From: Gemmatimonadota bacterium
GTDB taxonomy: Bacteria; Gemmatimonadota; Gemmatimonadetes; Gemmatimonadales; GWC2-71-9
Direction: 5' to 3'
Assembly: GCA_039592335.1 (NCBI GenBank)
Contig: JBDHBX010000015.1
Span: 26,777-90,776 of the forward strand
DNA: 64,000 bases
Shown here piece by piece: positions 7,813-59,968 of this stretch; positions within the stretch are counted from its first letter, which is position 1, and each line of letters begins with the position of its first letter. The notes beneath the pieces are model-generated. The model made no database searches, was not told the origin of the DNA, and saw nothing but the letters and a program-made list of their open reading frames with translations. Position numbers and translations under genes: made by a program.

Positions 7813-7820
7813 CAGGCAAG

Positions 7821-7847: not shown

Positions 7848-7892
7848 AGTTCCGGCCCCACGCCACCCACCGCACGGCTCGACCTCAGGCCA

Positions 7893-8549
<657 letters not shown>

Positions 8550-8567
8550 GCGAGTAAGTTACGTGCC

Positions 8568-9620: not shown

Positions 9621-9638
9621 GCGCCGGACGGGGGCCCC

Positions 9639-10097
9639 TCACCGCATCCACATCACCACCAGAACGGCGACGACCGCAAGGACGACGGTCGCCACGACAG
9701 CGGTCACCACCCAGCGGCGACGGCGACGCCGCGTCGGGTATACCCCGGTTCGCTCGATCTCACCCAACCCCAGCACCTCGAAGCCTCTCCGTTGCGCGGG
9801 CGCCGGCTGACCGGTGACGGCCGTCTGGAGCATGTCGCCCATGTCGCGGATGGCGCTCATCGTGACGCGGGCGAGCGACGTGCGCGGTCCCTCGGGTGGC
9901 GGATCGTAGTCGCGCAGCACCTCGTAGGCCTCATTGATGCGCTTGACGTTCTTCTGCGCTTTCTGCTGCAGCCGCTCTGCGTGCGCGAAGCGATCGGGAT
10001 GCCACACCTGAGTGAGGTCGCGGTACGCCTGCTGGATCTCCTCCTTGGAGGAATCTGGCGGCAATCCCAGCACGCGATAAGCGCGGTTCACGTCCAT
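9639..10097 (-). CDS. J-domain (DnaJ-like) protein with C-terminal membrane anchor
   Basis: From ATG 10097: MDVNRAYRVLGLPPDSSKEEIQQAYRDLTQVWHPDRF (HPD motif). It carries an RRRRRR run, then the hydrophobic tail VVTAVVATVVLAVVAVLVVMWM. Confidence 0.75.
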   Translation of the reverse strand: MDVNRAYRVLGLPPDSSKEEIQQAYRDLTQVWHPDRFAHAERLQQKAQKNVKRINEAYEVLRDYDPPPEGPRTSLARVTMSAIRDMGDMLQTAVTGQPAPAQRRGFEVLGLGEIERTGVYPTRRRRRRWVVTAVVATVVLAVVAVLVVMWMR

Positions 10098-23136: not shown

Positions 23137-23720
23137 GCCTCGGGGGGTGCGCCTTCGGGATAGAGCGTCTTGTAGAGCCAGGCGCGGGCTTTCACCCAGT
23201 CGCGGCGGACCGTGCGGTCGGTGACGCCCAGGACCTCCGCGATCTCCTTCTCCTCCATACCGCCGAAGAACCGGTACTCCACTACCTGGCGCTGCCGGGG
23301 ATCCAATTCCTCGAGCGCGGCATCGAGCGCCAGCATCTCGTCGGGCTTGAACTCCAGGGCGTCGTCGCCCTCGCCCAGGGTGGTGCGCACCCATTCCCCT
23401 TCCCGCTTGAGGGCCTTCTTGCGGCGGGCGTGATCCACCAGGACCTGTCGCATGGCGCGGGACGCGATGGCAAGGAAGTGTGCCCGGTCGGCGGCGGCCG
23501 CCGCTCCGCCACCCGCGAGCTTGAGATAGGCCTCGTGCACCAGCTCCGTGGGACGCAGGGTGTGACCCGCGCGCTCCACGCCCAGCCTGCGACGGGCCAC
23601 ATGGCGTAGCTCGTCGTAGACCAGGGGCATGAGCTGGTCGAGGGCTTGGGAGTCACCGGCACGGGCGGCGTCGAGCAGCCGCGTCACGTCACCGGGAGGC
23701 CCGGCTTCTCCCGCTTGCAT
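23133..23720 (-). CDS. ECF sigma factor of the kinase-associated type (TIGR02999-like)
   Basis: DVTRLLDAARAGDSQALDQLMPLVYDELRHVARRRL...HTLRPTELVHEAYLKL...HFLAIASRAMRQVLVDHARRKKALKR, and region 4 FFGGMEEKEIAEVLGVTDRTVRRDWVKARAWL. Confidence 0.85.
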   Translation of the reverse strand: MQAGEAGPPGDVTRLLDAARAGDSQALDQLMPLVYDELRHVARRRLGVERAGHTLRPTELVHEAYLKLAGGGAAAAADRAHFLAIASRAMRQVLVDHARRKKALKREGEWVRTTLGEGDDALEFKPDEMLALDAALEELDPRQRQVVEYRFFGGMEEKEIAEVLGVTDRTVRRDWVKARAWLYKTLYPEGAPPEA

Positions 23721-37048: not shown

Positions 37049-39001
<1,953 letters not shown>

Positions 39002-42667: not shown

Positions 42668-42967
42668 CTACACTCCTCTCGCCCGTAAGCGCCGGATGCG
42701 CTGCGGGCCTCTCTTACTAGAGTCGCGATGAAACCACCGAGAAGAAGTGACTGGTGTCACCCGCAACGTGGTGTGGGCCACGTCACGTTGTTCACGTCAA
42801 GCACCGTTGCCGTCGTTGACCATTACCCAAGATTGGGCTGCACGCACGGCTCGAGGAACCAGAGGCCGTGGCTGCGGGCACTGGCTCCAACGGCTGCCCC
42901 TCCCGCCCTGTCTGGCCCCCGCGACCCCCGCCTCATACCTTGCACCAGACCCAACCGAGATCGCTCA

Positions 42968-44914
42968 GTGACCGACCTTCTGGACCGCCTCAAGACTGCG
43001 CTCGCCGACCGCTACCGCCTCAAGCGGGAGCTGGGTGGCGGTGGGATTGCGGTGGTGTATCTCGCCCACGACCAGCGGCTCGACCGCCCCGCCCTTCCCA
43101 AGGTGATCCGTCCCGACCTGGCCGCGTCCCTTGAGGCCGAGCGGTTTCTCCGGGAGGTAGAGGCAGCGGCGAAGCTGACGCATCCCAACATCCTCGCCCC
43201 GTACGACTGCGGGAATGCGGGCGGTCTGCTCTACTACGTCATGCCGTTCGTGAAGGGCGAGCCGCTGCGTCGGCGGCTGGGGCGGGAGCCCCGGCTGTCC
43301 ATCGAGGAGGCCCTAGAGATCGCGCGCCAGGTGGCGGCGGCGCTGGACCACGCGCACCGCCAAGGGATCGTGCATCGCGACATCAGGCCCGAGAACATCC
43401 TGCTGCCGGAGGGCCGGGCGATGGTGACCGAGTTCGGGATCGTTCGGGCCCTGAGGCTGGCAGCGGGAGCGCGACTCACCGAGACCGGCGTCTCGAGGAG
43501 CAAGCCCTACTACATGAGTCCGGAGCAGGTGTTGGGCGACGAGGTCGATGCGCGCTCGGACCTGTACTCGCTCGGCGCAACGCTGTTCGAGGTGGTGACG
43601 GGCGAGAAACCGTTCGAGGGAGAGACAGCCCAGCAGATCGTGGCGCAGCATCTTGCGAATCCGGTGCGCGAGCCCCGGGAATTGGCGCCCAACGTTCCAG
43701 CTTGGGTGTCCGGTGTGATCGTGCGCTGCCTCCAGAAGGCGCCAGAGGATCGGCTTCAGAGTGCCGCCGAGATGTTGGAGGCGCTCGATGCCGGGGCAGC
43801 GGCGCCGGAATCCTCCGCTGCAGGACCGGCAGCGGCGGACGAGCTCGGGGCTCTCGAGGTCGTCCAGGGAGCCGGCTGGGACTTCGACGAGCTGGTCACA
43901 CCCGAGGTGAAACCACCACCGCAGCCCGTCTATGACGTCGATGCCGTCGAGGAAAGCCCGCGCGCGCCGGAGCCCGCACCTCCAACAGCGGGGCCGATCA
44001 CGACGGGCGGCGACCTGGTATCGGGAGCCTGGTTCGACACGGATCAAGCAGAGTCCATGGTGACGCCGGCGCCCGAGCCGGTGGTCGAGAGAGCCGAGCC
44101 ATCGGAACTTGTGATTCTGGGCGATGAGGCTGAATCGGATGTCGCGGCTTGGACAGGTGATGTAGCTGAAACAGAGGCGCCCACCAAGGCCAAACTGGTC
44201 GCGAAGGCCTCCCGGGTCCCGCCATGGCTGAGGCAACTCTACGACTGGGGCCCGGAGCTGCTGGTGCGGCTCGCTCGGCAGCGCGAGACGTGGTACTTCG
44301 CCGCGAAGGGCATCGGAGTGGTTCTCGGGGTGGTGCTCCTTTCGCTAGCCGTGAAGAGCGTCTTCTTTCGCCCGTCCACCGTGCACTACCAGTTCATCAG
44401 CAACGAACTCGTGGAGCCCGTCGACATATTGATGGACGGGCAGACGGTGCACAGACTCGAGCCCGGGCTACGAGACTCTGTGATTCTGCCGAGGGATCGA
44501 CCGGTCGGGGTATCGTGGCGGCTCGTCCGCCCACGGCAGGGCAGCCAGGAAATGGGTGAGGAGTTCGAGGTGTTGTTGTCGAGCGGAGCGGGACGGCGCG
44601 AGGACGCACGCTGGACGATCACGGGCGTCACTCTCGATCGAGCCATGTTCGCACCGCGGATCACGAACCGCACCGACCGCGACCTCGTGGCACTGATCAA
44701 CCGTGGGACGTCAGCAGAACAGCGGTGCAACTGTGTCATCCCGGCCGCCAGCGAAGACGTGCACATCGGGTATTATCCGCTGCTCGAGAACTCGACGATT
44801 CGGTTCTTCGACGCGCAGCGGGCCTATCGCGGACAGTTTCAGGAAATCGGCGACATCTCCGCGCGAGTAGATACGCTCTCGGGTTCGGTCGGCGTCACCA
44901 TCGAGAGGTTCTAG
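42968..44914 (+). CDS. Degenerate Hanks-type kinase (probable pseudokinase) with TM and C-terminal extracytoplasmic domain
   Basis: The GTG 42968 start gives VTDLLDRLKTALADRYRLKRELGGGGIAVVY, parallel to the other kinases here. It has ALPKVI for VAIKVL, HRDIRPEN for HRDIKPEN and TEFGIV for xDFGIA. Confidence 0.75.
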   Translation: MTDLLDRLKTALADRYRLKRELGGGGIAVVYLAHDQRLDRPALPKVIRPDLAASLEAERFLREVEAAAKLTHPNILAPYDCGNAGGLLYYVMPFVKGEPLRRRLGREPRLSIEEALEIARQVAAALDHAHRQGIVHRDIRPENILLPEGRAMVTEFGIVRALRLAAGARLTETGVSRSKPYYMSPEQVLGDEVDARSDLYSLGATLFEVVTGEKPFEGETAQQIVAQHLANPVREPRELAPNVPAWVSGVIVRCLQKAPEDRLQSAAEMLEALDAGAAAPESSAAGPAAADELGALEVVQGAGWDFDELVTPEVKPPPQPVYDVDAVEESPRAPEPAPPTAGPITTGGDLVSGAWFDTDQAESMVTPAPEPVVERAEPSELVILGDEAESDVAAWTGDVAETEAPTKAKLVAKASRVPPWLRQLYDWGPELLVRLARQRETWYFAAKGIGVVLGVVLLSLAVKSVFFRPSTVHYQFISNELVEPVDILMDGQTVHRLEPGLRDSVILPRDRPVGVSWRLVRPRQGSQEMGEEFEVLLSSGAGRREDARWTITGVTLDRAMFAPRITNRTDRDLVALINRGTSAEQRCNCVIPAASEDVHIGYYPLLENSTIRFFDAQRAYRGQFQEIGDISARVDTLSGSVGVTIERF

Positions 44915-46045: not shown

Positions 46046-47029
46046 ATGCCAGCCAACCTCACACCGGCGTACAGGGAGGCCGAGGCCAAGTTCCGCAGCG
46101 CGGTGACGCGGGAGGAAAGAATCGCGTGCCTGGAGGAGATGCTCCGGGTGATCCCCAAGCACAAAGGGACGGACAAGCTCCAGGCCGATCTGCGCTCCCG
46201 CCTGTCGAAGCTCAAGCGCGAACCGAAGAAGAAGGGCGCCGCCCGGAGAGACAGTCACCGAGTTCCGAGAGAGGGAGCCGGGCAGGTGGTGCTGGTGGGT
46301 CCCCCAAACGCCGGGAAGTCGAGTCTCGTGGCCTCCCTCACGCATGCCAAGCCCGAGGTCGCCAGCTACCCCCTCACCACTCGGGAAGCCACCCCGGGGA
46401 TGATGCCCTTCGAGGACATCGCCTTCCAGCTCGTGGATCTACCCGCGCTGTGCGAGGAGCACGTAGAGCCCTGGGTCTACGATCTGGTGCGCGCCGGGGA
46501 TCTGGTGTGGCTCGTGGTCTCCATCGAGCACCCGCTCGTCGGCCTCGACCTTGAAATGGAGCTTCTGGCGCAGAAGGCCATCACGCTCTATCCAGCGGGG
46601 ACCGGTGCGCCAACGGAGACGCGGCCGGGATGGCTCCATAAACCCACCTTGCTGGTCGTCACCGGAATGGACCGAGACGGCTCGGAGGGGGATCTGGCGG
46701 CGCTCGAGGAGTTGCTGGAGATCCCGTGGCCCACGGTGCCCGTGTGTTCCGTTGCGGGCACGGGGTTGGAGGAGTTGGCAAAACGCACCTTCGAGGCTCT
46801 GGAGATCATCCGGATCTACGCCAAGGAGCCCAAGAAGGACGCGGACCGCGACCGACCCTTCACCCTGAGGAAGGGCGCCACCGTCGGGGACTTGGCCCGG
46901 ACCATCCACAAGGACATCGCCGACGGATTCAAGTTCGCCCGCGTGTGGGGACCCAGCGCGTTTGACGGTCAGTCGGTGAAGGCGGCGCACGTCCTGGAGG
47001 AAGGGGACGTGGTGGAGATCCACTGGTGA
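46046..47029 (+). CDS. DRG/Rbg-like Obg-family GTPase with C-terminal TGS domain; deviant G3 and G4
   Basis: G1 GPPNAGKSSL and G2 YPLTT. G3 reads DLPA, not DxPG. G4 reads TGMD, not NKxD. TGS region: RIYAKEPKK..PFTLRKGATVGDLARTIHKDIADGFKFARVWG. Confidence 0.75.
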   Translation: MPANLTPAYREAEAKFRSAVTREERIACLEEMLRVIPKHKGTDKLQADLRSRLSKLKREPKKKGAARRDSHRVPREGAGQVVLVGPPNAGKSSLVASLTHAKPEVASYPLTTREATPGMMPFEDIAFQLVDLPALCEEHVEPWVYDLVRAGDLVWLVVSIEHPLVGLDLEMELLAQKAITLYPAGTGAPTETRPGWLHKPTLLVVTGMDRDGSEGDLAALEELLEIPWPTVPVCSVAGTGLEELAKRTFEALEIIRIYAKEPKKDADRDRPFTLRKGATVGDLARTIHKDIADGFKFARVWGPSAFDGQSVKAAHVLEEGDVVEIHW

Positions 47030-47141
47030 GGCTCAGCCGATCGTCTTCTCCGGGGGCGGGAGCTCACCAAGGTAGAGCAATTCCAGTATCGAGCCGATTT
47101 CGGGAATCATGAAGTAGGCGAACTCGGCCGCGTCAGGCCCG

Positions 47142-47420
47142 CTATCGAAACATCTCCGGGTTTATCTCCAGGGAGATCTCGGAGATCCTGTCCGCCGGCA
47201 GTCCGGCTCGCTGGGCGTGCTCTCGAATGGCCTCTGGGTTGGGAGCGTCGTACTCGCAGTAGATCTTGCCCTCGGCCTCGGAGACGTAGCTTCTGACCCA
47301 GACGACGCCGGTCATCCCGGCGAGCACTTCGTTGGATTTCCGACCCGCGCCTGCGAGCTGCTCCGGGGTGAGCGAACCGACGTCGCGCTCGATGATGTAT
47401 CTAGGCACTCGTTCCTCCAA
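47142..47420 (-). CDS. DUF4242 family small protein
   Basis: 92 aa with RYIIERDVG..., VVWVRSYVSEAEGKIYCEYDAPNPEAIREHAQRAGLPADRI. Confidence 0.7.
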   Translation of the reverse strand: MEERVPRYIIERDVGSLTPEQLAGAGRKSNEVLAGMTGVVWVRSYVSEAEGKIYCEYDAPNPEAIREHAQRAGLPADRISEISLEINPEMFR

Positions 47421-47455
47421 TCAGCGGCTGTGGTTCGCGGTACTGCCGGTCGGCG

Positions 47456-50400
47456 CTACAGTCGTTCGCACGCCGCCGTCAGTTTCTCGTCCGCGCATTC
47501 ATCGGCAATCTTGCGGGCCTGGCCCGCGAAGTCGAGGGCCCGATCCCACTGATCGCGAGACGCCTCGACCTGCGCGATGCGGAACAGCATCCATCCCTCG
47601 CCATCCCGGTCCTCGAGATCCTTCCGTAGCTGGAGCGAGGCTTCGTATTGCACGAGCGCTTCGTTGGGCTTCCCGATCGCCGCGTACACGTCACCCATCG
47701 TCGCGAGCGAGTGGCCCTCGAGACTCCGCTGCCTCGTTTGGCGGTTGGTTTCCAACGCCTCGTGAAGCGGCTCCAGGGCCTCCTCGAATCGACGGCCGTC
47801 TCGGAGGACCGCGCCGATGCTGTTCAGCACGAGTCCGACATGGACCTGATCGCCACGGTCACGGAAGATCTCCAGTGCGCGCTCGTAGCATGCGAGTGCC
47901 TCGGCGTTGTCCCCCTGCTCCCAACGAATCACGCCGAGTGTATTGAGCAGGTTCCCCTGCTTGGGCGCATCGTCGAGCTCGACGGCCAGGTGCAGCGCAT
48001 CCTGGTACAAGGCGATGACCGCGGCCGCGTCGGTCCCGGTCCGCCGCGTGAGCCGGGCGACGCCTTCCACCGCTTCCATCTCACCGGGCAGATTCTCCCT
48101 GCCCTTCCTTAGAGCCCGCACCTTGCGCCATTCGGTGATCGCGGCTCCGGAATCTCGGAGCTCCTGCTCGTAGATCTCCGCCAGCCGCTGTCGCGTGTCG
48201 CCTTCCAGCGAACGCTCACCCATTCGCTCGAAAACCTCGGCCTTCTCGCGGATGTACGGGAGCGCTTCCCTTGGCCGCCCGAGCGCCAAGAGCAACTCGC
48301 TGAGTCCATGCAGTCCCTGCGTCAGTCCAGTAGCGTACTGGATCTCGCGCATCCGCCGCACCACGTCCTCGTAGATGCGGATGGCCTCCTCCGAGTTGCC
48401 CTGTAGGTGTGTTATGGCTGCCATGGCCGTCAACGTGAACGACGTTTGCCCAACCAGGCGGTGGCGATCCAGGATCGCGAGCCCTTTCTGCAGGTACTCC
48501 ATCGCCTTGTCCAACTCACCCCGCTCGCGATGGATTCCGGCCGCCATGAAGAGGGCGAAATGTGCTCCCACCTCGAGTTTCCCCTCTTGGAAGAGCTGCA
48601 CGGCCTCCTCGTAATGGCGGAGGGCCTCATCGGTTCGTGCAGCGCCCTTCAGGACCGTGCCGAGGTTGTTGAGGTCCTGCGCCACCGCCTCCCAGTCCTT
48701 CCGCTCGCGGTCGATGGCGAGTGCGGCCTCCGCGGCGGCGATGGCCGGCTCGAACTCTCCCTCGTGCCATCCGACAAACCCCATGCTCCGCAGCGCGTTT
48801 CGCTCCCCGACGCGATCCGACAGGGCTCGCCAAATCTCGAGCGAGTTGTCGAGCGCTTCCCGGGCCTCTGCAAACTGCCCGAGTAGCGTGAGAAGATCAC
48901 CCTGCCTGATATATGTCTCGGCGAGTTGACGATCATGCGTTCCCGGTTCGGCCAGCGACAGAAGCTCGTCGATAATCGTGCGCTGTTGATCCCGGTTCCC
49001 CACTGTCTCACACGCTCGCTCCCACGCGAGGAGCACGTCGATCTCTACCTTCCGACGTTCGTCGCTCTCCTCAAGCTTCATGACCCAGCGGTGCACGTTC
49101 TCCAGCATCCGCGACTGATGCGCGAACAGACTCAGATCGCACGCTTTCTCCGCCGCGCGACGCCCATATCGCACGGCCGCGGGCCATCGCTCGGCGATGC
49201 TGAAGTGGTGCGCGAAGATATCCGGTTGCTCTGCGGCGCGATCCGCTTGTACCTCTTCGAGGACCTCGCCAACCAGACCGTGCAACTTCTTACGCTGGTG
49301 CTGCACGAGACTCTCGTACGCCGCTTCCTGCGTGAGCGCATGTTTGAAACGGTATGCCGCCTCCGGGAGTACCCGGACCTGCTGGATCATCCCCAACGAC
49401 TTGAGCGCTTCGAGCGAAGACGGGAGCGCAGTCGCATCGGGAAGTGCCCGCTCGAGAATGTCGCGCGCGAACTCGCGGCCAACCACGGAGGCGAGGCGCA
49501 GGACCTCCCGTGCTTCGGGATCCACCCGATCCAGCCGACTGCGGAGCACTGCCTGCACGGTGTCGGGCAGCTGCAGCGTCTCCACACTCCCCGTCAGGGT
49601 CATCGTCCCCTCCTCCTCCCTGAGCAGGCCCTCCTCCCGCATGGCGTGGCACAGCTCTTCGAGGAAGAAGGGGTTGCCTGCCGTCCGTTCGTGCAGATGC
49701 TGGCCGAGATCGTCCGCGATGCGATCAACCTTCAGGCCCGAGCAGATGACGGCAATCGAAGAAGAAGGCTCGAGCGGACCCAGGCGGATCGTCGTGTGGT
49801 GGTCCACCTGGCCGAGGTCGGGGATTCCCTGCGGACGAGCGGTCACCACAACAAGCAGCGGGTGGGCCACTGCGATGCCCGCCAGTTGCTTGAGCGTCTC
49901 ACGCGACGCCCCATCGGCCCAGTGCCAATCTTCCAGCAGCATGACCACCGGCCGCTGCCTAGACGCCACGGTGAACACGGCCGCGAGTCCCTCCGACATC
50001 GCCAGGCGAAGGTCCTCGCCTTTGAGGTGCTCGAGAGACGCATGCTCCTCGGATTGAATCGAGAGCAGGTGAAGATAGATGGGAATGAAGTCACCGAGAT
50101 CCGGATCGACTGCCCGAATGGCATCAACGACCGATTCCGCCTGGTGCTCGACCCCGTCTCGCAGACCGAGAACGTGCCGCAGTGCCTCGATGAACGGGAG
50201 ATACGGGGTAGTCGCCCCTAACGACTCGCACCGTCCTTCGATGACGTGCACGGCGGCGGGGTCCAAGGTGTGCAGGAACTCGTAACGCAAGCGACTCTTC
50301 CCGACACCAGCGTCGCCCACGACCGACACGACCTGGCCCTCCCCGGTGAGGGATCGCTCGAGACAGCTCTGCAGCGTCCCCATCTGGGCGTCTCGTCCCG

Positions 50401-52117
50401 CGAAACGTGTGAGTCCGTTGCGTTCGGCGCCCTCGAGCCGTGTGCGCACTCCCGACTCTCCGACCACGCGGTGAGGCGTGATCACGGACCCGCCCCCACT
50501 GACCGCAAAGGAACTGAGGGGTTCGGTGGTGAAGAATGGCACCAACAGCCGCTCCGTGTCGGCACTCACGAGCACGTGGTTGGCGGCGGCGTGCTCAGTG
50601 AGCCTGGCGGCAACGCGTACGGCGTCCCCGGCCAGCGCGAATCGCTGGCCCTGGTGACGACTCGGCCGGGCCACCACGAAGCCTGTGCTGATCCCGGTCC
50701 GCACGCCGAGGGCGGATCCCGTCGCATCCCGCAGCTCGTCATTCACGGCTGCGACATACTGCTGGAGCTGGAGCGCCGCGCGCACCGCCCGGTGTGCGTC
50801 GTCCTCGTGTGCCAGGGGCACACCGAAGATCGCCTCCAGCTCCTCGCCGGCAGCACCATTCAACACACCACCGTGTTTGCCCACGATCGCCTCCGCGGCC
50901 AAATGGATGCGATCCATGACGCGCTCGAGGTCGTCGGCATCCAGGTGCTCGACCAGCATCGCATACCCTTCGACGGACGAGTGGAGCACCGTGGCATGCC
51001 GTCGCTCGCTGTCGGTCAAGGGCGGTTCGGGACTCGCGCCCACCACCCCAGGCACCATATCCTGCGGCGCCATCGTGGCGCCCGGTTTCGCGCCCGGCTC
51101 GGACGACTGGCCACAACGGCCGCAGAAGGCCACATCCGGTGCCACAGCGGCACCACAGCTCCCGCACACCTTCTCCAGTGCAGAGCCGCAGCCATCACAG
51201 AAGCGGTGCCCGCAGGGGTTGTCCCGCTCACAACTGGGACAGGAGACCGACAGGACGGCCCCGCCGGCCGAGGGAGCTGGCGCCGCGGCAGACGTGAGTG
51301 CTGCAGCAAATTCCGATGCCGACGCGAACCGATCGGTGGGGGCTTTGGCAAGCGCCTTGGCCACGGCTTGCTCCACGTGGAGCGGCACCCCACTCCGCGC
51401 CGCGCCGATGGGCGCCGGTTCCTGCGTGAGCACCTTGGCAATGACCGCTTGCACGGTGGGCCCCGTGTGGGGGGGAGCGCCGGTCAGTAGCTCGTACAAC
51501 ACGGAGCCCAGCGCGTAGATGTCGCTCGCCGCACCCAAAGACTCGTCTCCGACCGCCTGCTCCGGACTCATGTACTGCGGAGTTCCGACCAGGAGGCCCG
51601 TTGCGGTGAGGCGCTCCTCGTCCACGCCGCTCACCGCCAACGCGATGCCGAAGTCGGTGACGAACACCTGCCCATCACGCAGCAGGATGTTGGCGGGCTT
51701 GATGTCCCGATGGATGACCCCATGCCGGTGGGCGTAGTCGAGCGCCGATGCAATCGCCACCGCATACCCAACGGCCTCATCCACCGCGACCTGCTTTTCC
51801 CCGTCCATCCGCTGCCGCAGCGATTCGCCCTCAACAAACGGCATGACGTAGAAGAGGAGACCGTCGGCTTCCCCCGAATCGAAGAGCGGCAGAATGTTGG
51901 GGTGCTGCAGGTTCGCCGTGACGCGGATCTCGCTGAGAAACCGTTCGGCACCGATTGCGGCCGCGAGGTCGGGGAGGAGCACCTTGAGCGCGACGGGGCG
52001 GTCGTGCTTCAGGTCTCGGGCCAGATACACGATGGCCATGCCGCCACGCCCCACCACGTGCTGCACGGCGTAGCGGTCCGCCACCGCGGTGGCGAGACGC
52101 TCAGTTAGATCGGTCAT
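47456..52117 (-). CDS. 1553-aa multidomain protein: Ser/Thr kinase, double zinc ribbon, degenerate class III cyclase-homology domain, P-loop (AAA_16/STAND-like) NTPase, TPR array
   Basis: Kinase motifs are canonical (aa 1-270). Zinc ribbon CPSCERDNPCGHRFCDGCGS..CGSCGAAV..FCGRCG at aa 293-337. CHD-like aa 370-545. Walker A GDAGVGKS near aa 600. TPR-like repeats run to the C-terminus. Confidence 0.85.
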   Translation of the reverse strand: MTDLTERLATAVADRYAVQHVVGRGGMAIVYLARDLKHDRPVALKVLLPDLAAAIGAERFLSEIRVTANLQHPNILPLFDSGEADGLLFYVMPFVEGESLRQRMDGEKQVAVDEAVGYAVAIASALDYAHRHGVIHRDIKPANILLRDGQVFVTDFGIALAVSGVDEERLTATGLLVGTPQYMSPEQAVGDESLGAASDIYALGSVLYELLTGAPPHTGPTVQAVIAKVLTQEPAPIGAARSGVPLHVEQAVAKALAKAPTDRFASASEFAAALTSAAAPAPSAGGAVLSVSCPSCERDNPCGHRFCDGCGSALEKVCGSCGAAVAPDVAFCGRCGQSSEPGAKPGATMAPQDMVPGVVGASPEPPLTDSERRHATVLHSSVEGYAMLVEHLDADDLERVMDRIHLAAEAIVGKHGGVLNGAAGEELEAIFGVPLAHEDDAHRAVRAALQLQQYVAAVNDELRDATGSALGVRTGISTGFVVARPSRHQGQRFALAGDAVRVAARLTEHAAANHVLVSADTERLLVPFFTTEPLSSFAVSGGGSVITPHRVVGESGVRTRLEGAERNGLTRFAGRDAQMGTLQSCLERSLTGEGQVVSVVGDAGVGKSRLRYEFLHTLDPAAVHVIEGRCESLGATTPYLPFIEALRHVLGLRDGVEHQAESVVDAIRAVDPDLGDFIPIYLHLLSIQSEEHASLEHLKGEDLRLAMSEGLAAVFTVASRQRPVVMLLEDWHWADGASRETLKQLAGIAVAHPLLVVVTARPQGIPDLGQVDHHTTIRLGPLEPSSSIAVICSGLKVDRIADDLGQHLHERTAGNPFFLEELCHAMREEGLLREEEGTMTLTGSVETLQLPDTVQAVLRSRLDRVDPEAREVLRLASVVGREFARDILERALPDATALPSSLEALKSLGMIQQVRVLPEAAYRFKHALTQEAAYESLVQHQRKKLHGLVGEVLEEVQADRAAEQPDIFAHHFSIAERWPAAVRYGRRAAEKACDLSLFAHQSRMLENVHRWVMKLEESDERRKVEIDVLLAWERACETVGNRDQQRTIIDELLSLAEPGTHDRQLAETYIRQGDLLTLLGQFAEAREALDNSLEIWRALSDRVGERNALRSMGFVGWHEGEFEPAIAAAEAALAIDRERKDWEAVAQDLNNLGTVLKGAARTDEALRHYEEAVQLFQEGKLEVGAHFALFMAAGIHRERGELDKAMEYLQKGLAILDRHRLVGQTSFTLTAMAAITHLQGNSEEAIRIYEDVVRRMREIQYATGLTQGLHGLSELLLALGRPREALPYIREKAEVFERMGERSLEGDTRQRLAEIYEQELRDSGAAITEWRKVRALRKGRENLPGEMEAVEGVARLTRRTGTDAAAVIALYQDALHLAVELDDAPKQGNLLNTLGVIRWEQGDNAEALACYERALEIFRDRGDQVHVGLVLNSIGAVLRDGRRFEEALEPLHEALETNRQTRQRSLEGHSLATMGDVYAAIGKPNEALVQYEASLQLRKDLEDRDGEGWMLFRIAQVEASRDQWDRALDFAGQARKIADECADEKLTAACERL

Positions 52118-52313
52118 GGGGTTCTTCCAGGGCGGATCCGCAAGCCGAGTAATTTAGTCTGATTTCGGGCGTTGGGAAGCTCCAGCATGGGCCGCGTCAC
52201 TCGGGCCTACAAGGCGGCGGCGCGGCTCCCGCTCCTTAAGCTCTTGTCATTACTTGTCTTGCCTGGTCCGTGTCCGCCCCGGTGGGCGCCCGGGCGGTTC
52301 GAGCATTCAGGAC

Positions 52314-53078
52314 CTACCTTCTGCGGATCTTCCCCAGCGCTTCGCTGGCGGCCCTTCGGACCTTGACGTCAGAATCGTCCTGAGCCTGGAGCAACGCGTC
52401 GAGGGCTCGAGGGTCTCCCAGCTCCCCTAGCCCGATGGCGGCGTGCATCCGCATGAGGGCGCTCGGGTCCTGCAGCGCATCCAGGAGCGGCTCCAACGCA
52501 CGCGAGTCGCCCGACAGCCCCAAACCGTGGGCGGCGTGGGCTCGAACCTCTTCGATGTCACGGCCGTGCATGGTCTCCAGCAGCACATCGTAGGACCGAG
52601 GATCCCCCAGCTGGCCCAGCGCAACGGCGGCATGCTCCCGCACCCGTGGATCCGGATCGTTCCGCATCACTTCGGCGAGCGGGTCGCTCGCCCGCGCGTC
52701 TCCCAGCAAGCCGAGGGCGGCGCAGGCGTGCTCGCGGACGTCGGCATCCCGATCATTGCGAATGACTTCGATGAGAGGGGGTACGGCGCGCCGGTCGCCC
52801 AGCCGCCCCAGGGCGGTGGCCGCGTGCTCCCGCATGTCCGGATCTTCCATCTTGAGCATGCGGAGCAGCGTTTCCAGGTCGTTCGCGACGCCCCGCAGTC
52901 TCGCAGCCTCGACTGCACGCGCGATCTCGGCCGACGATAGCGGTTGGCCCGCAGGTGCAACGGCGCCCCTCCCGGGGCTGAAGGCCAGCTGCGACAATAC
53001 CAGTGCAACGCCGGCCAGAGTGACAGTGGCGTGATTCGACATGGTCGGTTCCCCCCTGTCCTTCATCGGTCGTCTCAC
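52314..53078 (-). CDS. HEAT-repeat (PBS-lyase-like) protein, about six tandem units
   Basis: Units of about 31 aa, such as DPDMREHAATALGRLGDRRAVPPLIEVIRN / DRDADVREHACAALGLLGDARASDPLAEVMRN. N-terminal signal-like segment. The start could be one of several Met codons (53078-53054). Confidence 0.8.
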   Translation of the reverse strand: MRRPMKDRGEPTMSNHATVTLAGVALVLSQLAFSPGRGAVAPAGQPLSSAEIARAVEAARLRGVANDLETLLRMLKMEDPDMREHAATALGRLGDRRAVPPLIEVIRNDRDADVREHACAALGLLGDARASDPLAEVMRNDPDPRVREHAAVALGQLGDPRSYDVLLETMHGRDIEEVRAHAAHGLGLSGDSRALEPLLDALQDPSALMRMHAAIGLGELGDPRALDALLQAQDDSDVKVRRAASEALGKIRRR

Positions 53079-53500
53079 TGAGTACGATGCGATGAGGCGG
53101 GGAATCGTTGCAGCGGGACGTACCGGGGGACACCTCCATCCACCGTAACGAGGCGGCTCACGTGTATCCCTCCTGTTCGCGCTACGGCGTGGTCACGAGC
53201 TCTCACCCGCGCGTGGCTCCAGCGCTTTGGGTTCCTCCCCCCGCTGCTGCGTGAGCATGCGCTCGGTGAAGTCGAGACGCTCGTGGTAGTCCTCAAGCAG
53301 TTGGGCCTGGTCCGTTGCGAACTCCGATAGCTGCTCGACACGCTGCTCTCACCCTCGCATTCACTACGAGAGGGGCGAGAGAGCGGTTTCCGCCTCGCGC
53401 CGCCACGGCGTAGGTGGTGACCGGCGTCACATTCGCGCGCTCCAGCAGGGCAGATCTTCTTGTCCCCTAACTCTTCACACGCCGAAGCAGTCGCCAGCGG

Positions 53501-55459
53501 GTGCCTCTCGTGCCAGTACCAGCCATCGCCATTCACGGATCAGGGGACCGCTCGGAAATCGCGCGAGCCGTCGACGGCAACTTTAAAGATTCCACCCTGT
53601 ACGACCGGGTGGTCACCCTGGCCTTCGACTGGGGCACGGTAACTCCCGAGTCGAGCTACAAGGGAGCCCACGACCTGTACCGCTTCCTCAAGCGGCACGC
53701 CGCCAATATCGGGGCGGCGTCCCGCGTGGGGCTGGACTTCGGACTCCACTCCCTCGAACGGTTGGTGGGCGCCTTGCAGGTCCAAGTGCATCGGCTGCTC
53801 CAGGCGGTGCTGTCGGCGCTGGTGGCGATGCTGTTCGCCACGCTGGTGGCCAAACTCGTGGTCCTGGCGCCGGCGGCGTGGCTCGGTCTGCCTACGATCA
53901 CGCTCTCACCCATGCGGTGGCTGGCCACGGCCGTGAGCTGGACGCAGGTCGCGCTTGCCGCCGGGATCACGCTATTGATCGCGCTCGCCGGGTTGCGCCT
54001 GCTGCTCACCATGTCCGCGCGGCCGGTCGCCGTCACGTTTCGCAGCATCGTCCTCCTGTTGCTGCAGCCGGTGCTGGTCATCACGCTCGGCGCCTTCGCT
54101 GCAGCGTGGTGGCTGCTGTTGGCAATCTTCACCTTCCTCGTTGTCTTGTCGTATTTCGCTGCAGGCGTCGCCGCGGCGTTGCTCTGGGCCGGTGCTCTCG
54201 CTGCCGTGATCACGCTACGCATGCTCTGGGCGCGCGGATCACTGCCCGGGCCACTCAAAGTGGCGCTCGAAGCCTTCCGGTACCTCGGTGAGCCACGGTA
54301 CCGGGAACGAATCCAGCAGGCTTTGGACAAGGCGATCGTGCAGGCGCGGACACGCATCGGCAACGAGCAGGACTTCGTGCTGGTCGCCCAGGGCATCGGA
54401 ACGGTGATCGCCCTCGATTCCGTCTCGCACTCGCGCGTCTGGAGAAAGACAGATCGCGTGCTGCTCGTGACGATGGGCTCGCCGCTCAGGCGGTGGTTCC
54501 TGACGCTCTATCCAGGTACCCTCTTCCCCGAGCGCATGGAGAGCGTGGTCGACTTCGTCGTGCGACGCCTGAGCGAGCTTCGGTGGGTCAACATCTACCG
54601 CCCGTGGGATTACCTGGGCGCCGCGCTCGACCTGAAGCCCTTTAGCGGGCGGGACATAACGACGGGGATCGGCCAGCAGCGCTTCTTCGGTCATACCGAC
54701 TATTGGCGCGATATTGACGCCCGAAGAACGTTCCAGCACGGCCTGCTCCGGCTCAAGAACGTGAAGCCGCGTCCCGTGGCGCGGAGGGAGTCGGTTCACG
54801 AGCTGCCCAAACCGCGAGGCGCCGCCGAATTCCGCATCCCCGCGCTCGCGCGCACACTGCTCAGGACCGGGGTGGTGCTCGCCACCGTCGGATGGATGCT
54901 CTGGTGGGTGGCGACGGGCTCCGGCGTGCTCGTGTCGGGGGTCGAGGGCCCGTCCGAACTGCTCGAGCGGCGGGGCGTCGTGGTCGAAGCCGCTGTCACC
55001 CATCGCCGCGAAACCGTGGAGAATAACCTGGGTGTGACGTACGTGGACCACTGGGTGTTCGCGTTCAGGGATTCGAGCGGGGTGGCGCGGCGCCTCAAGG
55101 TCGAGCGCGACGCTAGCGATGCCCACCTCGGTATTGCCCCCCCCGGCTTCGACCCCCGCACGCTCACCCGCCGGATCCGCGCCGCGTGCAGCGACACCTG
55201 GCCCCCGGATTGGTGGCCGATGGGAAACGTGCAGGCAAGCTGCACCCTGGAGGGCGTCCGGCTGCGGTACTACACGGGAGACCTGGCCGTGCTCGACCTT
55301 CCGGACTTCCAGCCGCGGCGGTTCGGGAGAGAGCCGGTCCGGGGATGGACTGAGGCCGGTGTCGCTGCGGCCATGCTCTCGGTGCTGGTCCTGATTCCCT
55401 TTGTGCTGGGACTCAGGGTGTTCGGCGTGCTCCTCGGACTTAGTCGTGTTCCCTCCTGA
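53501..55459 (+). CDS. Large polytopic membrane protein with an alpha/beta-hydrolase-like scaffold (nucleophile apparently absent)
   Basis: GTG start, 652 aa. It has 5-6 TM segments at aa 100-260 and 2 near the C-terminus. FVLVAQGIGTVIALDS stands where GHSxG would be, followed by NIYRPWDYLG and FFGHTDYW. The family call is tentative. Confidence 0.5.
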   Translation: MPLVPVPAIAIHGSGDRSEIARAVDGNFKDSTLYDRVVTLAFDWGTVTPESSYKGAHDLYRFLKRHAANIGAASRVGLDFGLHSLERLVGALQVQVHRLLQAVLSALVAMLFATLVAKLVVLAPAAWLGLPTITLSPMRWLATAVSWTQVALAAGITLLIALAGLRLLLTMSARPVAVTFRSIVLLLLQPVLVITLGAFAAAWWLLLAIFTFLVVLSYFAAGVAAALLWAGALAAVITLRMLWARGSLPGPLKVALEAFRYLGEPRYRERIQQALDKAIVQARTRIGNEQDFVLVAQGIGTVIALDSVSHSRVWRKTDRVLLVTMGSPLRRWFLTLYPGTLFPERMESVVDFVVRRLSELRWVNIYRPWDYLGAALDLKPFSGRDITTGIGQQRFFGHTDYWRDIDARRTFQHGLLRLKNVKPRPVARRESVHELPKPRGAAEFRIPALARTLLRTGVVLATVGWMLWWVATGSGVLVSGVEGPSELLERRGVVVEAAVTHRRETVENNLGVTYVDHWVFAFRDSSGVARRLKVERDASDAHLGIAPPGFDPRTLTRRIRAACSDTWPPDWWPMGNVQASCTLEGVRLRYYTGDLAVLDLPDFQPRRFGREPVRGWTEAGVAAAMLSVLVLIPFVLGLRVFGVLLGLSRVPS

Positions 55460-56650: not shown

Positions 56651-58384
56651 TCAGGTGGAATTCAAGTACAAATGGACGTACATGACTGCCATGGATCCCT
56701 CCCCCACCGCGGAGGCGACTCGTTTCACGGATCCGTGGCGAACGTCACCGGCCACGAAGACACCGGGGAGGCTCGTCTCCAGCATGTAGGGGGTGTGACT
56801 CACCGGAGTCTCCAACTTCGTACCAGCAGCAAGCCAACCCGAGGAACGTCTGGGCGCCCTAGGGGAGGGCGTATCGTGCAACACCCGCGCCGCGGCGGCC
56901 GCCTGCGCCTCCGGTCCCGACAAAATGAAGCCGTGCTCGTCACGCGCCACCGTGTCCCCCAGCCACTCGGTGTGCGGCACCGCACCGATGAAGATGAAGA
57001 GCCCGCTTGCCGGAACGGTCTTCGTCGACTTCCCGCCCTCGCTTGACAGCACGAGCTGCTCGAGCCGGTCATCACCCTTCACCTCGCGCACCTCGGTCTC
57101 GGTCCACACCGCGATGCAGTCTGTCCCACCAATCTGGTCGATGAGGTATTGAGACATCGTCTTGGAAAGTGACTTGCCTCGCACCAGCATCGTGACGCTG
57201 TTGGCAAACCTCGAGAAATACATCGCGGCCTGTCCCGCCGAATTCGCCCCGCCGATGATGTACACGTCCTTTCCCCGTACCGACTCCCCTTCCCCCATCG
57301 CGGCACCGTAGTACACTCCGGCGCCGCTCAGACGTTGAACGCCTTCAGCCTGGAGCTGCCGATACGAGACGCCGGTCGCGATGACAACTGCCCGGCAGTG
57401 CAGCTCGTTGCCATCGCTCAGCCGTACCGTACGCGTCGGGCCGTCGGCCTCGAAACCCACGACCTCCTGGGCCGTGAGAATCTCCGCGCCGAAACGACGC
57501 GCTTGCGTCACGGCCCGGCGAGCGAGCTCAGCGCCTGACAATCCCGTGGGGAACCCGAGGTAGTTCTCGATTCGCGAACTCATTCCAGCCTGCCCCCCGG
57601 CGGCCTGGCGCTCGACCACCAACGTGCGCAGACCCTCTGAAGCACCGTACACGGCTGCCGCCAGTCCGGCGGGTCCCGCTCCCACGATGATCAGGTCGTA
57701 CAGCGGCCTGTCGGCGATCGTCTGCAACCCAGCACGCTGGGCGATCTCGCGATTGTCCGGTTTGCAGAGCACGGCCCCGTCGGGAAAGAACAGACAGGGC
57801 AACTCCGGCTTGGCCATGCCGGTCCCCTCGATCAGCTGCCGGGCCTCGTCGCTCATTTCCACATCGAGCCAGAGATACGGAATGTTGTTTCTCGCGAGGA
57901 ACTCCTTCACCTGATGGGACGCCGGCGCCCACTGGTTGCCCACGACGCGAATGCCTTCGAAGACCGGCCGGTACGCGGCCTGCCAATCCTCCAGGAGATC
58001 GCTCACTACGGGGTACAGCTTCTCGTCGGGTGGATCCCACGGCTTGAGCAGGTAGTAGTCGAGGTCCACGTCGTTGATGGCCTTGATGGCGGCCTCGGTA
58101 TCCGCATAGGCCGTCAACAGCACTCTCTTCGCATCCGGGAAGAGCTCGACGGTCTGCCCGAGAAACTCCACGCCCGTCATTTCCGGCATGCGCTGATCGG
58201 CCAAAAAGAGCGCCACCGTGTCGCTCCGCCGCTTCAACGCGTCCGCAGCGTTCAGGGCCTCTTGGCCCGACGTGGCTTTGACGATCCGATAATCCGGTCG
58301 GTACTGCCGCCGCAAATCGCGTTCGATGGCGTTGCAGACCTGCGGGTCATCGTCCACCGTCATGATGACCGGCTCCGACATCAC
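56651..58384 (-). CDS. Response-regulator receiver fused to a thioredoxin-reductase-like FAD/NAD(P) oxidoreductase lacking the CxxC disulfide
   Basis: Receiver: IMTVDDDP...LFLADQRMPEMTG...LLTAYAD. Flavoprotein: LIIVGAGPAGLAAAVYGASEGL, IIGGANSAGQAAMY. GVYYGAAMGEG stands where TrxR has CATCDG. Confidence 0.8.
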   Translation of the reverse strand: MMSEPVIMTVDDDPQVCNAIERDLRRQYRPDYRIVKATSGQEALNAADALKRRSDTVALFLADQRMPEMTGVEFLGQTVELFPDAKRVLLTAYADTEAAIKAINDVDLDYYLLKPWDPPDEKLYPVVSDLLEDWQAAYRPVFEGIRVVGNQWAPASHQVKEFLARNNIPYLWLDVEMSDEARQLIEGTGMAKPELPCLFFPDGAVLCKPDNREIAQRAGLQTIADRPLYDLIIVGAGPAGLAAAVYGASEGLRTLVVERQAAGGQAGMSSRIENYLGFPTGLSGAELARRAVTQARRFGAEILTAQEVVGFEADGPTRTVRLSDGNELHCRAVVIATGVSYRQLQAEGVQRLSGAGVYYGAAMGEGESVRGKDVYIIGGANSAGQAAMYFSRFANSVTMLVRGKSLSKTMSQYLIDQIGGTDCIAVWTETEVREVKGDDRLEQLVLSSEGGKSTKTVPASGLFIFIGAVPHTEWLGDTVARDEHGFILSGPEAQAAAAARVLHDTPSPRAPRRSSGWLAAGTKLETPVSHTPYMLETSLPGVFVAGDVRHGSVKRVASAVGEGSMAVMYVHLYLNST

Positions 58385-58399
58385 TAATCTCCTTGGGCT

Positions 58400-59968
58400 T
58401 TAGGCCGTCTGCTCGCGATTGGCTTTCAGAGGAAGCCTGACCTCGAAGCAGGTTTCTCCCGGTTTCGAGCGGACCTCGATCTCTCCCTTGTGCTGTTGCA
58501 CGACGATGCTGTGGCTGATGTTGAGCCCCAGACCCGTACCCTCCCCGGGTGGCTTCGTCGTGAAAAAGGGGTCGAACACCTTGGTCTGTACGTCCTGTGG
58601 AATCCCCGGGCCGTCATCCGTGATCCGAACGACCGCCCATGGATCCCTTCTGGAGGTCTCGAGAGTCAACGTACCCTGGCCCTGCATCGCGCCGATCGCG
58701 TTGTCGACGATGTTCGTCCACACCTGATTCAACTCGCTCCCCACCGCCTGGATCCGCGGCAGATCGGTGTCGAACTTCCGGCGAATCGTCACACCTTGTT
58801 TGAGTTTGCCACGGAGCATGACCAGCGTGTCGTTCAGTCCCTCGTGAACGTCCACGGCCTGGACGGGCGCCTGATCGAGGTACGTGTAGGACTTGAGCGC
58901 CTTGACGATCTCGGATATCCGTCCCGCTCCCTCGCGAACCTCGGACATCAGTGCCTGCGTCGCGTACGTACTCGTGACCGACGCCAGCACCGTCGCCAGC
59001 CGGTCATCACCCAACCGCTCTGCCATCTCGGCCAGCTCGTTCTCGGTCACGCCGATCGTCACAAGCGTCGGCGCAAAATGCCAAGGCTCGGCTACGCCGT
59101 GCCCTTCCAGCCACCCTTCGATCTCGCCTTCCAGGTCGCTGCGCGTCAGCGGATCCAGATCCACCGGATCCCGGATCCGCTCTCTGGCGAGCGCTTGGAG
59201 GTCCTCCAGGACGCGAGCCTGCTCCTCGCTCAGATCCGCTTCGCCCAGCCGGCGCTCGGCCCGCGCGAGCCGCTCCAGCTCCTCGCGCAGCTGCTCCGCA
59301 CCTCGTTGCGCGGCGGCGGCGGGATTGTTGAGTTCGTGGGCCATCCCGGCGCTGAGTCGTCCGAGCGTGGCGAGCTTTTCGCTCTGCCGGAGCGTGATCT
59401 CCTGCTGCAGGTACGCCGTCTCAAGATCGCGCATCTTCTTTTGCTCCCACAACAGGTAGACCTTGTCGTGGAAGATCTCGGAGGCCAGGGTCAAGAACTT
59501 CACGTCCAGCTCGTTGAATGAACTCCGCACTTTGCTGTAGAGCAGCATGCTCTTGAGCCTGCCGGTGCCGAAGCGCGGGCAGACGTATATCTGCGCGATG
59601 GTGGGCTTGCGGAATTGCTCGGGAAGCACCTGCTTTGCGCTCTCGAGCTCTTCTGCATCGAGGAAGCGCGACTTTCTCCCCTTCCACAGATCCAGCTCGA
59701 TACTGCACAGCTGATCGACCGGTATCTGGTCCACGGTCGCCCGACCCCGAAAGCCATCCACGACGATGGCAACCCGCTGCCCGGCGGTGTGCGAGCCATC
59801 GGGCTCGAGGCTGAAATAGCGCCACGAGAAGACGTCCGCGACATACTTCAAGCGGCGCGCGAGAAGCTCGCCCACCTGAGCGATGTCCGCGGAGGCGTTG
59901 ATTTCGCTCGATAGCTCGAAGAGCGCCTCGTATCGTGAGAGCGTCGAGAGCGCGCCTTCAGTGGCCAC
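58400..59968 (-). CDS. Sensor histidine kinase with N-terminal GAF-like sensory region
   Basis: H-box LSAGMAHELNNPAAAA, N-box VWTNIVDNAIGAM, G-boxes DDGPGIP and GEGTGLGLNIS. No obvious TM segment. Confidence 0.85.
   Translation of the reverse strand: MATEGALSTLSRYEALFELSSEINASADIAQVGELLARRLKYVADVFSWRYFSLEPDGSHTAGQRVAIVVDGFRGRATVDQIPVDQLCSIELDLWKGRKSRFLDAEELESAKQVLPEQFRKPTIAQIYVCPRFGTGRLKSMLLYSKVRSSFNELDVKFLTLASEIFHDKVYLLWEQKKMRDLETAYLQQEITLRQSEKLATLGRLSAGMAHELNNPAAAAQRGAEQLREELERLARAERRLGEADLSEEQARVLEDLQALARERIRDPVDLDPLTRSDLEGEIEGWLEGHGVAEPWHFAPTLVTIGVTENELAEMAERLGDDRLATVLASVTSTYATQALMSEVREGAGRISEIVKALKSYTYLDQAPVQAVDVHEGLNDTLVMLRGKLKQGVTIRRKFDTDLPRIQAVGSELNQVWTNIVDNAIGAMQGQGTLTLETSRRDPWAVVRITDDGPGIPQDVQTKVFDPFFTTKPPGEGTGLGLNISHSIVVQQHKGEIEVRSKPGETCFEVRLPLKANREQTA

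Follow-up and report, generated by a model that had tools for sequence, protein, structure and literature searches.

What is a class III cyclase domain without its catalytic residues doing between a protein kinase and a STAND-type NTPase, and why is the gene that encodes it followed so closely by a small gene of the DUF4242 family? Both questions are raised by a locus in a 64,000-nucleotide (nt) stretch of Gemmatimonadota DNA (GenBank assembly GCA_039592335.1, contig JBDHBX010000015.1, positions 26,777 to 90,776 of the forward strand), which we call the window and whose own numbering we use throughout. An earlier note on this DNA, made from the sequence alone, had placed a single kinase/zinc-ribbon/cyclase-like/P-loop/TPR protein of 1553 amino acids (aa) at 47142–52117. 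The locus was right, but the span holds two genes: the complete 1553-aa gene (47456–52117, minus strand, stop codon at 47456–47458) and an 88-aa DUF4242/SCO4226-like gene (47142–47408, minus strand). We lean, though only slightly, toward a model in which the large protein would be a soluble cytoplasmic STAND switch whose ancestral cyclase output has been replaced by a kinase, with the degenerate cyclase-homology domain (CHD) as a structural adaptor and the DUF4242 protein as a co-sensor or regulator.

The large gene has an ATG start and one unbroken reading frame of coding-type composition (third-position GC content, GC3, 0.79) that encodes a kinase, a double zinc ribbon (DZR), a degenerate CHD, a STAND NTPase and a TPR region, in that order. 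The Pfam domains thus agree with the parts first listed, and the worry that the frame might be split by frameshifts does not apply to the window copy, which is intact and has an identical counterpart in public data (P0001, 100% identity, with generic annotation only). No transmembrane-like segments were found in the 1553-aa protein. Its nearest homologs come from metagenome-assembled genomes of Gemmatimonadota/Gemmatimonadales, and the GTDB genomes hold 46 intact full-length orthologs of 1358–1542 aa, over which conservation profiles were computed. In several assemblies (L003, L005, L006 and L007), the orthologs are called as two to four successive same-strand genes, a kinase-CHD-AAA_16 gene and then TPR pieces, most likely through frameshift errors or recent pseudogenization and not as genuine split genes.

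The domain at the center of the first question spans aa 356–565 (50423–51052, minus strand) and is recognized by Pfam, by alignment to solved cyclases and by structural comparison of an AlphaFold2 model. Guanylate_cyc (PF00211) matches aa 374–545 at E = 5e-13 and 49.6 bits against a cut-off of 21.9, and phmmer connects the domain to solved cyclases at E = 1e-14. Positions were assigned by residue-level alignment to 6sir, 5oyh and 2w01. In this alignment, the first metal-binding Asp is Ser381 (VLHSS for VFFSD), the second is Glu425 (GEE for GDA) and the transition-state Asn is Arg501 (GDAVR for GDTVN). These are the three substitutions that the earlier note had read from the sequence, and all three hold in the alignment; its own caveat, that an alignment might show the metal and transition-state residues to be conserved after all, was examined in the same way, and the residues are substituted. 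The losses go beyond these three, with Gly421 at the substrate-specifying Lys/Glu position, Ala494 at the Asp/Cys position and Ser540 in place of the triphosphate-binding Lys of the KGK motif. Among the catalytic positions aligned, only R505, the Arg of the Asn...Arg pair, survives. The protein therefore has the fold and the PF00211 match of a competent class III cyclase, but not the metal Asp pair, the full Asn/Arg pair, or the substrate pair with its triphosphate Lys.

The same losses run through the whole kinase-fused family. A search with the CHD and NTPase segment returned thousands of proteins of ~1100 aa, in which a DZR, SAM or alpha/beta-hydrolase N-terminus is followed by CHD-AAA_16-TPR, and 121 CHDs from this search were aligned. 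Of the non-kinase CHDs in this alignment, ~90% are canonical (D-x-D-x-N-R), and nearly all have D-[Q/K]-D-G-N-R as their six catalytic residues; the kinase-fused ones are degenerate in 12 cases out of 12. A second set was drawn from GTDB species genomes through the DUF4242 gene, independently of the CHD itself, and 53 loci were tabulated. None of the 52 kinase-linked loci has the first metal Asp and none has the Asn, the residues at the lost positions being scattered over T, A, R, G, V and S, among others; the lone canonical CHD belongs to the kinase-less locus L018. Finally, in a library of 1.84 billion proteins, all 42 kinase-fused cluster representatives carry a degenerate CHD (42/42).

Degenerate does not mean decaying, however. 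Among the positions that are at least 90% conserved in canonical CHDs, 12 are lost in the kinase clade (including F379, D381, T386, D498, N501 and K540), and several of these belong to catalytic motifs, namely the beta1 F-x-D and Thr, GD...N and the KGK Lys. Another 16 canonical-conserved positions persist, among them ERR, FG, HED and several Gly. The domain is gap-free in the 46 full-length orthologs, with a conservation of 0.53 compared with 0.63 for the kinase, and an AlphaFold2 model of aa 355–1050 (pLDDT 87.7) places its fold at a Foldseek TM-score of 0.85–0.90 to CyaB, Cya2 and RhGC. Selective loss, gap-free retention and a kept fold together argue for a maintained pseudoenzyme and not for a decaying remnant. 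As the earlier note had proposed, the domain is very unlikely to be a source of cyclic nucleotide monophosphates (cNMPs), judging from catalytic positions that are substituted here and hypervariable across the family while the kinase and Walker motifs are invariant. The retained fold and structural motifs fit a structural, dimerizing or regulatory role. Class III CHDs are obligate head-to-tail dimers, so the pseudo-CHD probably still dimerizes. A practical consequence is that proteins of the kinase-fused clade auto-annotated as "class 3 adenylate cyclase" are, by their residues, probably not cyclases, and such labels should be read with caution.

The kinase and NTPase modules, by comparison, keep their motifs. 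The Hanks-type Ser/Thr kinase domain occupies aa 1–285 (51263–52117, minus strand), with a Pkinase match over aa 16–232 (E = 5e-44, 151 bits) and a match to the PknB-type NCBIfam model NF033483 at 293 bits. It had been described as fully canonical, and every motif is indeed found: the G-loop GRGGMA, K45, E63, the HRD D138, N143, the DFG D155 and SPE, together with the activation-loop threonines T171/T173. Its catalytic residues are invariant in 46 of 46 orthologs, and the kinase is predicted to be active. The STAND-type NTPase module (NOD; aa 566–1030; 49028–50422, minus strand) contains an AAA_16 match over aa 571–757 (E = 2e-25, 90.9 bits), a Walker A motif GDAGVGKS at 601–608, a Walker B motif LLEDW at 727–731 (within LLEDWHWAD), and GNPFF and FKH motifs, with Walker A and B essentially invariant (59/59). 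Searched against the PDB by sequence, either as a single sequence or as a 22-sequence profile, the NOD returned P-loop noise only; its model matches the STAND-TPR protein 6mfv in Foldseek (E = 3e-10 over 510 columns), with which the earlier idea of a kinase governed by STAND-type logic is consistent. The remainder, aa 1031–1553 (47459–49027, minus strand), is the TPR sensor region, here called TPR*, with matches to TPR_12 (E = 1e-44) and TPR_MalT (66 bits) and TPR families over ~1060–1500. Both the Walker A module and the TPR module were thus anticipated, although the TPR span is ~520 aa and not ~550. The protein has the full anatomy of a STAND NTPase, a Walker A/B core with helical and winged-helix arms and a C-terminal repeat sensor. 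As an observation on its surroundings, the 64 kb contain four more genes for Hanks-type Ser/Thr kinases (20059–23394, 27929–29716 and 30319–32883 on the minus strand, and 42728–44914 on the plus strand), one of which encodes a 1111-aa kinase-TPR fusion, and the source genome is unusually kinase-rich.

The second question concerns the small gene downstream. Its product matches PF14026 at E = 2e-28 and 98.7 bits against a gathering score of 28.5. The mechanically called reading frame begins 35 nt past the stop of the 1553-aa gene, which is the distance given by the earlier note; the adjacency holds, but the true start is likely the GTG at 47408, which yields 88 aa as in all orthologs (stop codon at 47142–47144) and makes the spacer 47 nt. 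A Shine-Dalgarno sequence, GGAGGA (47413–47418, minus strand), can be read in this spacer and ends 5 nt before the GTG, and our scan found no terminator-like site between the two genes. In seven loci inspected gene by gene, whose large proteins are 45–79% identical orthologs, an 88-aa SCO4226-like gene lies directly downstream while the other neighbors vary. The DUF4242 products of orthologous loci are 70–93% identical, with a mean column identity of 84%.

This association is not confined to a few loci. Scanning the DUF4242 alignment against one genome per GTDB species gave 322 relatives, of which the best 80 (68–92% identical, mostly Gemmatimonadota) had their loci analyzed. In each locus whose sequence reaches far enough 5', the DUF4242 gene closely follows a kinase-CHD-NOD-TPR gene in the same orientation, with a median spacer of ~25 nt in the 46 intact cases and with two exceptions. 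One is L018 (Desulfobacterales), in which a protein with DZR, canonical CHD (DEDKNR), AAA_16 and TPR and without a kinase precedes the DUF4242 gene; the other is L083, on the Gemmatimonadota chromosome CP070792.1, where a truncated NOD-TPR remnant lies 5' of an intact DUF4242 gene. The L083 remnant (6008–7390 and 7212–9986 of that locus) is missing the kinase, the CHD and the Walker A region, and a multiheme cytochrome gene abuts it. All 87 partner proteins compared are exactly 88 aa long, with no indels, and P2, Y4, E7, R8, W37, S40, S43, G47, K48, Y50, C51, E52, E63, H64, E81, P84, M86 and F87 are invariant; only I49 and E77 are specifically conserved in kinase-linked copies. The DUF4242 protein is an obligate partner and more than a mere neighbor, and the kinase-CHD-STAND plus DUF4242 module is, as far as gene content in these genomes indicates, spread over hundreds of species within a single phylum, Gemmatimonadota. 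About 2,600 sequence clusters were found for the partner's DUF4242 subfamily.

The only studied relative of the partner is SCO4226 (PDB 4oi3), a weak nickel binder with a ferredoxin-like dimer fold, whose nickel ligands H23, D43, S46, E74 and H76 are conserved in Streptomyces (PMC4186839). The partner belongs to the same Pfam family and aligns with 4oi3 at E = 3e-7, but none of the five ligands is kept (they become G, S, E, R and S), the protein has a single His, and NF033706 scores 36.3 bits against a cut-off of 125; a nickel-binding role was therefore rejected. Several Streptomyces SCO4226 homologs carried the NCBI label "guanylate cyclase" when that paper appeared (PMC4186839, Figure 2 legend), a label that may echo the linkage of DUF4242 and cyclase genes. 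The linkage described here provides a first functional context for one DUF4242 subfamily.

We then asked which part of the large protein the partner follows, using as a control 80 metagenomic loci of non-kinase DZR-CHD-NOD proteins. Where the control protein has TPR* (284–399 bits to the window TPR), a DUF4242 gene lies directly downstream in all nine evaluable loci, the sequence of a tenth ending 101 nt after the gene; where it does not (at most 28 bits), none of ~60 evaluable loci has one. The control proteins were retrieved with a pattern that included the FSD motif. The DUF4242-linked ones have a DZR N-terminus and the CHD signature DKDGNR or DQDGIR. The DQDGIR subgroup (L106, L112, L117, L118 and L120; P0398 and P0432) has both metal Asp intact and the transition-state Asn replaced by Ile, which may represent an intermediate or altered-chemistry state.

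A search with TPR* returned 1108 representatives at E ≤ 1e-30 and added further N-termini: a BTAD (SARP-like) domain with a degenerate CHD in P0365, a tandem CHD in P0439, and an alpha/beta-hydrolase plus kinase with a degenerate CHD in P0388. SCO4226-like genes follow 34 nt downstream of P0365 and 19 nt downstream of P0439. The P0365 gene (BTAD-pseudo-CHD-AAA_16-TPR*; L169, 3001–7722, plus strand) has its 88-aa DUF4242 gene at 7756–8022 (plus strand), and its product appears by its domains to be a transcription-factor-output sibling of the window protein; the same locus has a second, 83-aa DUF4242 gene that is divergent upstream (1643–1894, minus strand). The SCO4226-like protein after P0439 (JGI 3300050046) is 196 aa long, roughly double the normal size, and may represent a duplicated DUF4242. 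Since DUF4242 tracks TPR* across N-termini, the constant unit is NOD-TPR* plus DUF4242, with an exchangeable N-terminal output. The CHD is intact where it is the sole output and degenerate wherever another output is fused in front of it.

The order of events can be read in part from the zinc ribbon, which has four CxxC pairs at aa 293–337 (51107–51241, minus strand) and was correctly called in advance; PF12773 matches aa 293–336 at E = 2e-8. The non-kinase DZR-CHD-AAA_16-TPR relatives usually begin with such a DZR. Within the kinase clade, only the window protein, L011 and L070 retain it, L013 and L084 do so in part, and the remaining members have none (0 Cys, with a linker of 0–23 aa). In a neighbor-joining tree of the NOD, computed without bootstrap, all kinase-fused members form one clade, distinct from both the DUF4242-linked proteins of cyclase type and the other DZR-type proteins, and the five DZR retainers share one of its sub-branches. 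The zinc ribbon is a relic of a DZR-cyclase ancestor that most family members have lost. These patterns fit a history in which a kinase was added to a DZR-CHD-NOD-TPR* ancestor, cyclase catalysis was then lost, and the DZR disappeared in most lineages. The relic status of the zinc ribbon, the obligate DUF4242 partner and a relatedness to TIGR03903 discussed below are points added beyond the earlier note.

Taken together, our results are best accommodated by the STAND-switch model, which draws on general knowledge of STAND proteins (MalT, AfsR, PH0952/6mfv and Apaf-1-type), class III cyclase dimers and PknB-type kinases. The ancestor would have been a DZR-cyclase-NOD-TPR sensor that produced cNMP. 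A kinase fused at the N-terminus would have taken over the output, and the cyclase, no longer catalytic, would have been kept as a dimeric adaptor through which the NOD, having once driven cyclase activity, now positions the kinase as the new output. In the resting state, the TPR sensor, together with or controlled by a DUF4242 dimer acting as a ligand-binding co-sensor or inhibitor, would keep the NOD ADP-bound and off. A signal would lead to nucleotide exchange on the NOD and to oligomerization, and the oligomers would cluster the kinase domains for trans-autophosphorylation of the activation loop at T171/T173, after which the activated kinase would phosphorylate downstream targets. PknB-type kinases are activated by dimerization and trans-autophosphorylation, and MalT is also controlled by small partner proteins.

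Several points weigh against this model. We infer the loss of cyclase activity, pseudo-CHD dimerization, NOD oligomerization and TPR-DUF4242 contact alike from sequence and fold, and gene adjacency is as compatible with a DUF4242 protein that acts as an inhibitor, a chaperone or a substrate as with one that acts as an input. The canonical state of the control CHDs is partly given by construction, because of the FSD motif in their retrieval pattern, and the unbiased comparison is the 121-CHD alignment. The history is also more complex than a single fusion, because the window subclade did not derive its kinase domain from the same source as the rest of the clade. The kinase domains of the window, L011 and L013 are 62–71% identical to those of Gemmatimonadota kinase-Tricorn/PD40 proteins (P0015–P0035), which are abundant, and only ~42% identical to the kinases of the remaining clade, although the NOD tree nests the window inside that clade. 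The incongruence of the kinase-domain and NOD trees, both neighbor-joining and without bootstrap, suggests a later replacement of the kinase domain in the window subclade. Finally, the pseudo-CHD has not lost everything: the Glu425 position is acidic (D/E) in 45 of the 53 tabulated loci and Arg505 is present in 44 of them, which leaves room for a regulatory role in binding a nucleotide or other ligand.

A broader reading, tentative and clearly behind the STAND-switch model in our estimation, shifts the emphasis from the kinase to the sensor. DUF4242 and NOD-TPR* would form an unrecognized two-component cytoplasmic receptor in which a DUF4242 dimer, as the ligand- or redox-sensing subunit, is read by the TPR. 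Its outputs would have been exchanged repeatedly among cNMP synthesis, protein phosphorylation and SARP-type transcription activation, with the old cyclase left behind as a pseudoenzyme adaptor. The universal residues C51, H64, E52, E63, K48 and Y50 provide a candidate sensing cluster on the partner. If this reading is true, the family would offer a natural series for how STAND receptors couple to different effectors.

The two residues retained in the pseudo-CHD raise the alternative that the domain senses a ligand (a nucleotide, cNMP, bicarbonate or another small molecule) at a degenerate dimer-interface pocket and thereby gates the kinase, much as the forskolin/regulatory site does in pseudo-heterodimeric cyclases. 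Besides the acidic second-metal residue and the Arg, the gap-free constraint in all members and the conserved ERR and HEDD motifs are in keeping with it. However, the domain has lost the first metal Asp, the Phe and Thr of beta1, the Asn and the triphosphate Lys, and the positions left behind are hypervariable with no new consensus, which makes a new and conserved site of binding less likely. The kept residues are, for the most part, also conserved in canonical relatives and so look structural. We regard ligand sensing by the pseudo-CHD as unlikely.

Equally improbable, in our view, is that the DUF4242 protein is the kinase's dedicated substrate and output, a small phospho-relay protein rather than an input, as GarA/OdhI would be in the comparison with PknG. 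The tight operonic linkage would suit such a role, as would the invariant S40, S43 and Y50 and a conservation that, at 84%, far exceeds that of the kinase protein, as expected for contact with conserved downstream targets. What makes it less likely than a DUF4242 co-sensor is that the same subfamily is equally linked to kinase-less cyclase or BTAD versions, and that the two positions specific to kinase-linked copies, I49 and E77, are neither Ser nor Thr.

Less probable still is a role in antiphage defense or conflict like that of Avs proteins or bacterial NLRs, in which a phage protein would be detected by the TPR region and abortive infection brought about by the kinase as effector. A STAND NTPase with a TPR sensor and an enzymatic N-terminal effector follows that logic, the flanking genes vary between loci, and the kinase matches PADLOC models such as PD-T4-6 and mad6. 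Yet the PADLOC-DB matches are confined to the generic kinase domain (aa 8–289), and neither the NOD nor the DUF4242 protein matched any PADLOC model. The neighbors are housekeeping or metabolic genes and not defense islands, and a module found in hundreds of species of one phylum with an indel-free 88-aa partner in 87 copies is unlike fast-evolving defense components. The antiphage assignment was rejected.

An accessory role in thiazole/oxazole-modified microcin (TOMM) biosynthesis, or in making ribosomally synthesized and post-translationally modified peptides (RiPPs) at large, is next to negligible and was likewise rejected: TIGR03903 (TOMM system kinase/cyclase fusion protein), with the same kinase-CHD-NTPase order, heads the NCBIfam matches (449 bits, E = 4e-134), but the score is far under the curated cut-off of 705.75, the reading frames scanned at 38974–59968 and ten further large ones elsewhere in the window showed no biosynthetic neighbors (cyclodehydratase, YcaO, dehydrogenase or precursor genes), and the seven orthologous loci have no TOMM genes. 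A tblastn search against plasmids for an annotated TOMM kinase/cyclase returned only generic cyclase/AAA ATPase annotations at 31–33% identity. TIGR03903 is nonetheless the closest named family: it has an N-terminal Ser/Thr kinase followed by CHD and NTPase, as in the window protein, with profile positions 283–939 aligning to aa 370–1029. A C-terminal TPR and a DUF4242 partner are not features in its model definition.

How new is this system? Among the closest known proteins are the DZR/SAM/hydrolase-class III cyclase-AAA_16-TPR proteins, widespread and ~1100 aa long, which are annotated as "adenylate/guanylate cyclase domain-containing protein" or "AAA family ATPase" and have the same DZR-CHD-NOD(-TPR) core at 40–47% identity over 650 aa. 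A subset has the same TPR type and the DUF4242 partner. They keep D-x-D-x-N-R and are presumably real cyclases, whereas the window protein adds an N-terminal kinase and has a degenerate CHD. The mycobacterial Rv0386-type cyclase-ATPase fusions are their studied relatives. PH0952 (PDB 6mfv), MalT and AfsR/SARP-NOD-TPR proteins share the NOD and TPR sensor, as the 6mfv fold and TPR_MalT matches indicate, and the logic of an N-terminal output under nucleotide-dependent oligomerization, with P0365 as a BTAD-fused sibling. The window NOD has no sequence-level similarity to any solved NOD, however, and in contrast to MalT and AfsR the output is a Hanks kinase in place of a DNA-binding domain, with a vestigial cyclase interposed. 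PknG-type kinases (kinase, zinc-binding rubredoxin and TPR) likewise combine a soluble Hanks kinase with a Cys4 zinc module and TPR, but PknG has no NOD or CHD, a different domain order and an unrelated partner logic (GlnH/GlnX and GarA). The window kinase shares a PknB-like activation loop with the PknB-type kinases.

The architecture itself is therefore a variant of known STAND signaling proteins, already present in databases and unstudied. Three things appear to be new: DUF4242 as an obligate partner, the way in which this partner stays linked to one specific TPR sensor through four types of output, and the systematic conversion of the cyclase into a pseudoenzyme adaptor. No description of the kinase-pseudo-CHD-STAND family, its DUF4242 pairing or the output-swap series was found in the literature searched, which excludes most subscription journals. 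The rewiring of one sensor core to different outputs has so far mostly been derived from distant comparisons, and this family gives close relatives in which one NOD-TPR sensor and its small partner are joined to a cyclase, a kinase or a BTAD output. It would also provide a clear case of a pseudoenzyme, a cyclase that is dead by its residues, retained as an inter-domain adaptor, and a concrete handle on Ser/Thr-kinase signaling in Gemmatimonadota, a soil phylum that is rich in kinases and has been little studied.

The HEAT-repeat gene to which the earlier note had drawn attention does lie upstream (52314–53078, minus strand, 196 nt from the 1553-aa gene), but none of the seven orthologous loci examined at gene level has it, and it was rejected as a member of the unit. 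Its product has a hydrophobic N-terminus, which suggests export. The hairpin after its stop codon is no better than shuffled sequence (z = −0.9), and a promoter and terminator scan of 46900–53700 gave nothing above expectation. The other window neighbors, including another Ser/Thr kinase, an adenylate kinase, a TGS-domain GTPase, UPF0182, a sigma-54 activator and peptidases, look like ordinary chromosomal genes.

A few further observations concern genes around the locus and its orthologs. In each of two loci, an ECF sigma factor gene lies directly upstream of the kinase-pseudo-CHD-STAND gene (L006, 4493–4996; L007, 1015–1614 and 3562–4128), which may reflect a kinase-sigma pairing in these lineages; the L007 contig, which is also that of L085, is labeled Acidobacteriota, and the window locus has no ECF sigma gene. 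Beside the HEAT gene, a 153-aa reading frame without a Pfam match (53075–53536, minus strand) overlaps its upstream end by 4 nt, and a 652-aa reading frame (53501–55459, plus strand), also without a Pfam match, has many strongly hydrophobic windows and probably encodes a polytopic membrane protein. Farther along, at 56651–58384 and 58400–59968 (both minus strand), a fusion of a receiver, a glutaredoxin-like segment and a pyridine-nucleotide-disulfide oxidoreductase lies directly 3' of a HATPase_c gene, whose 522-aa product has an N-terminus without a Pfam match; the two could be a redox-linked two-component pair.

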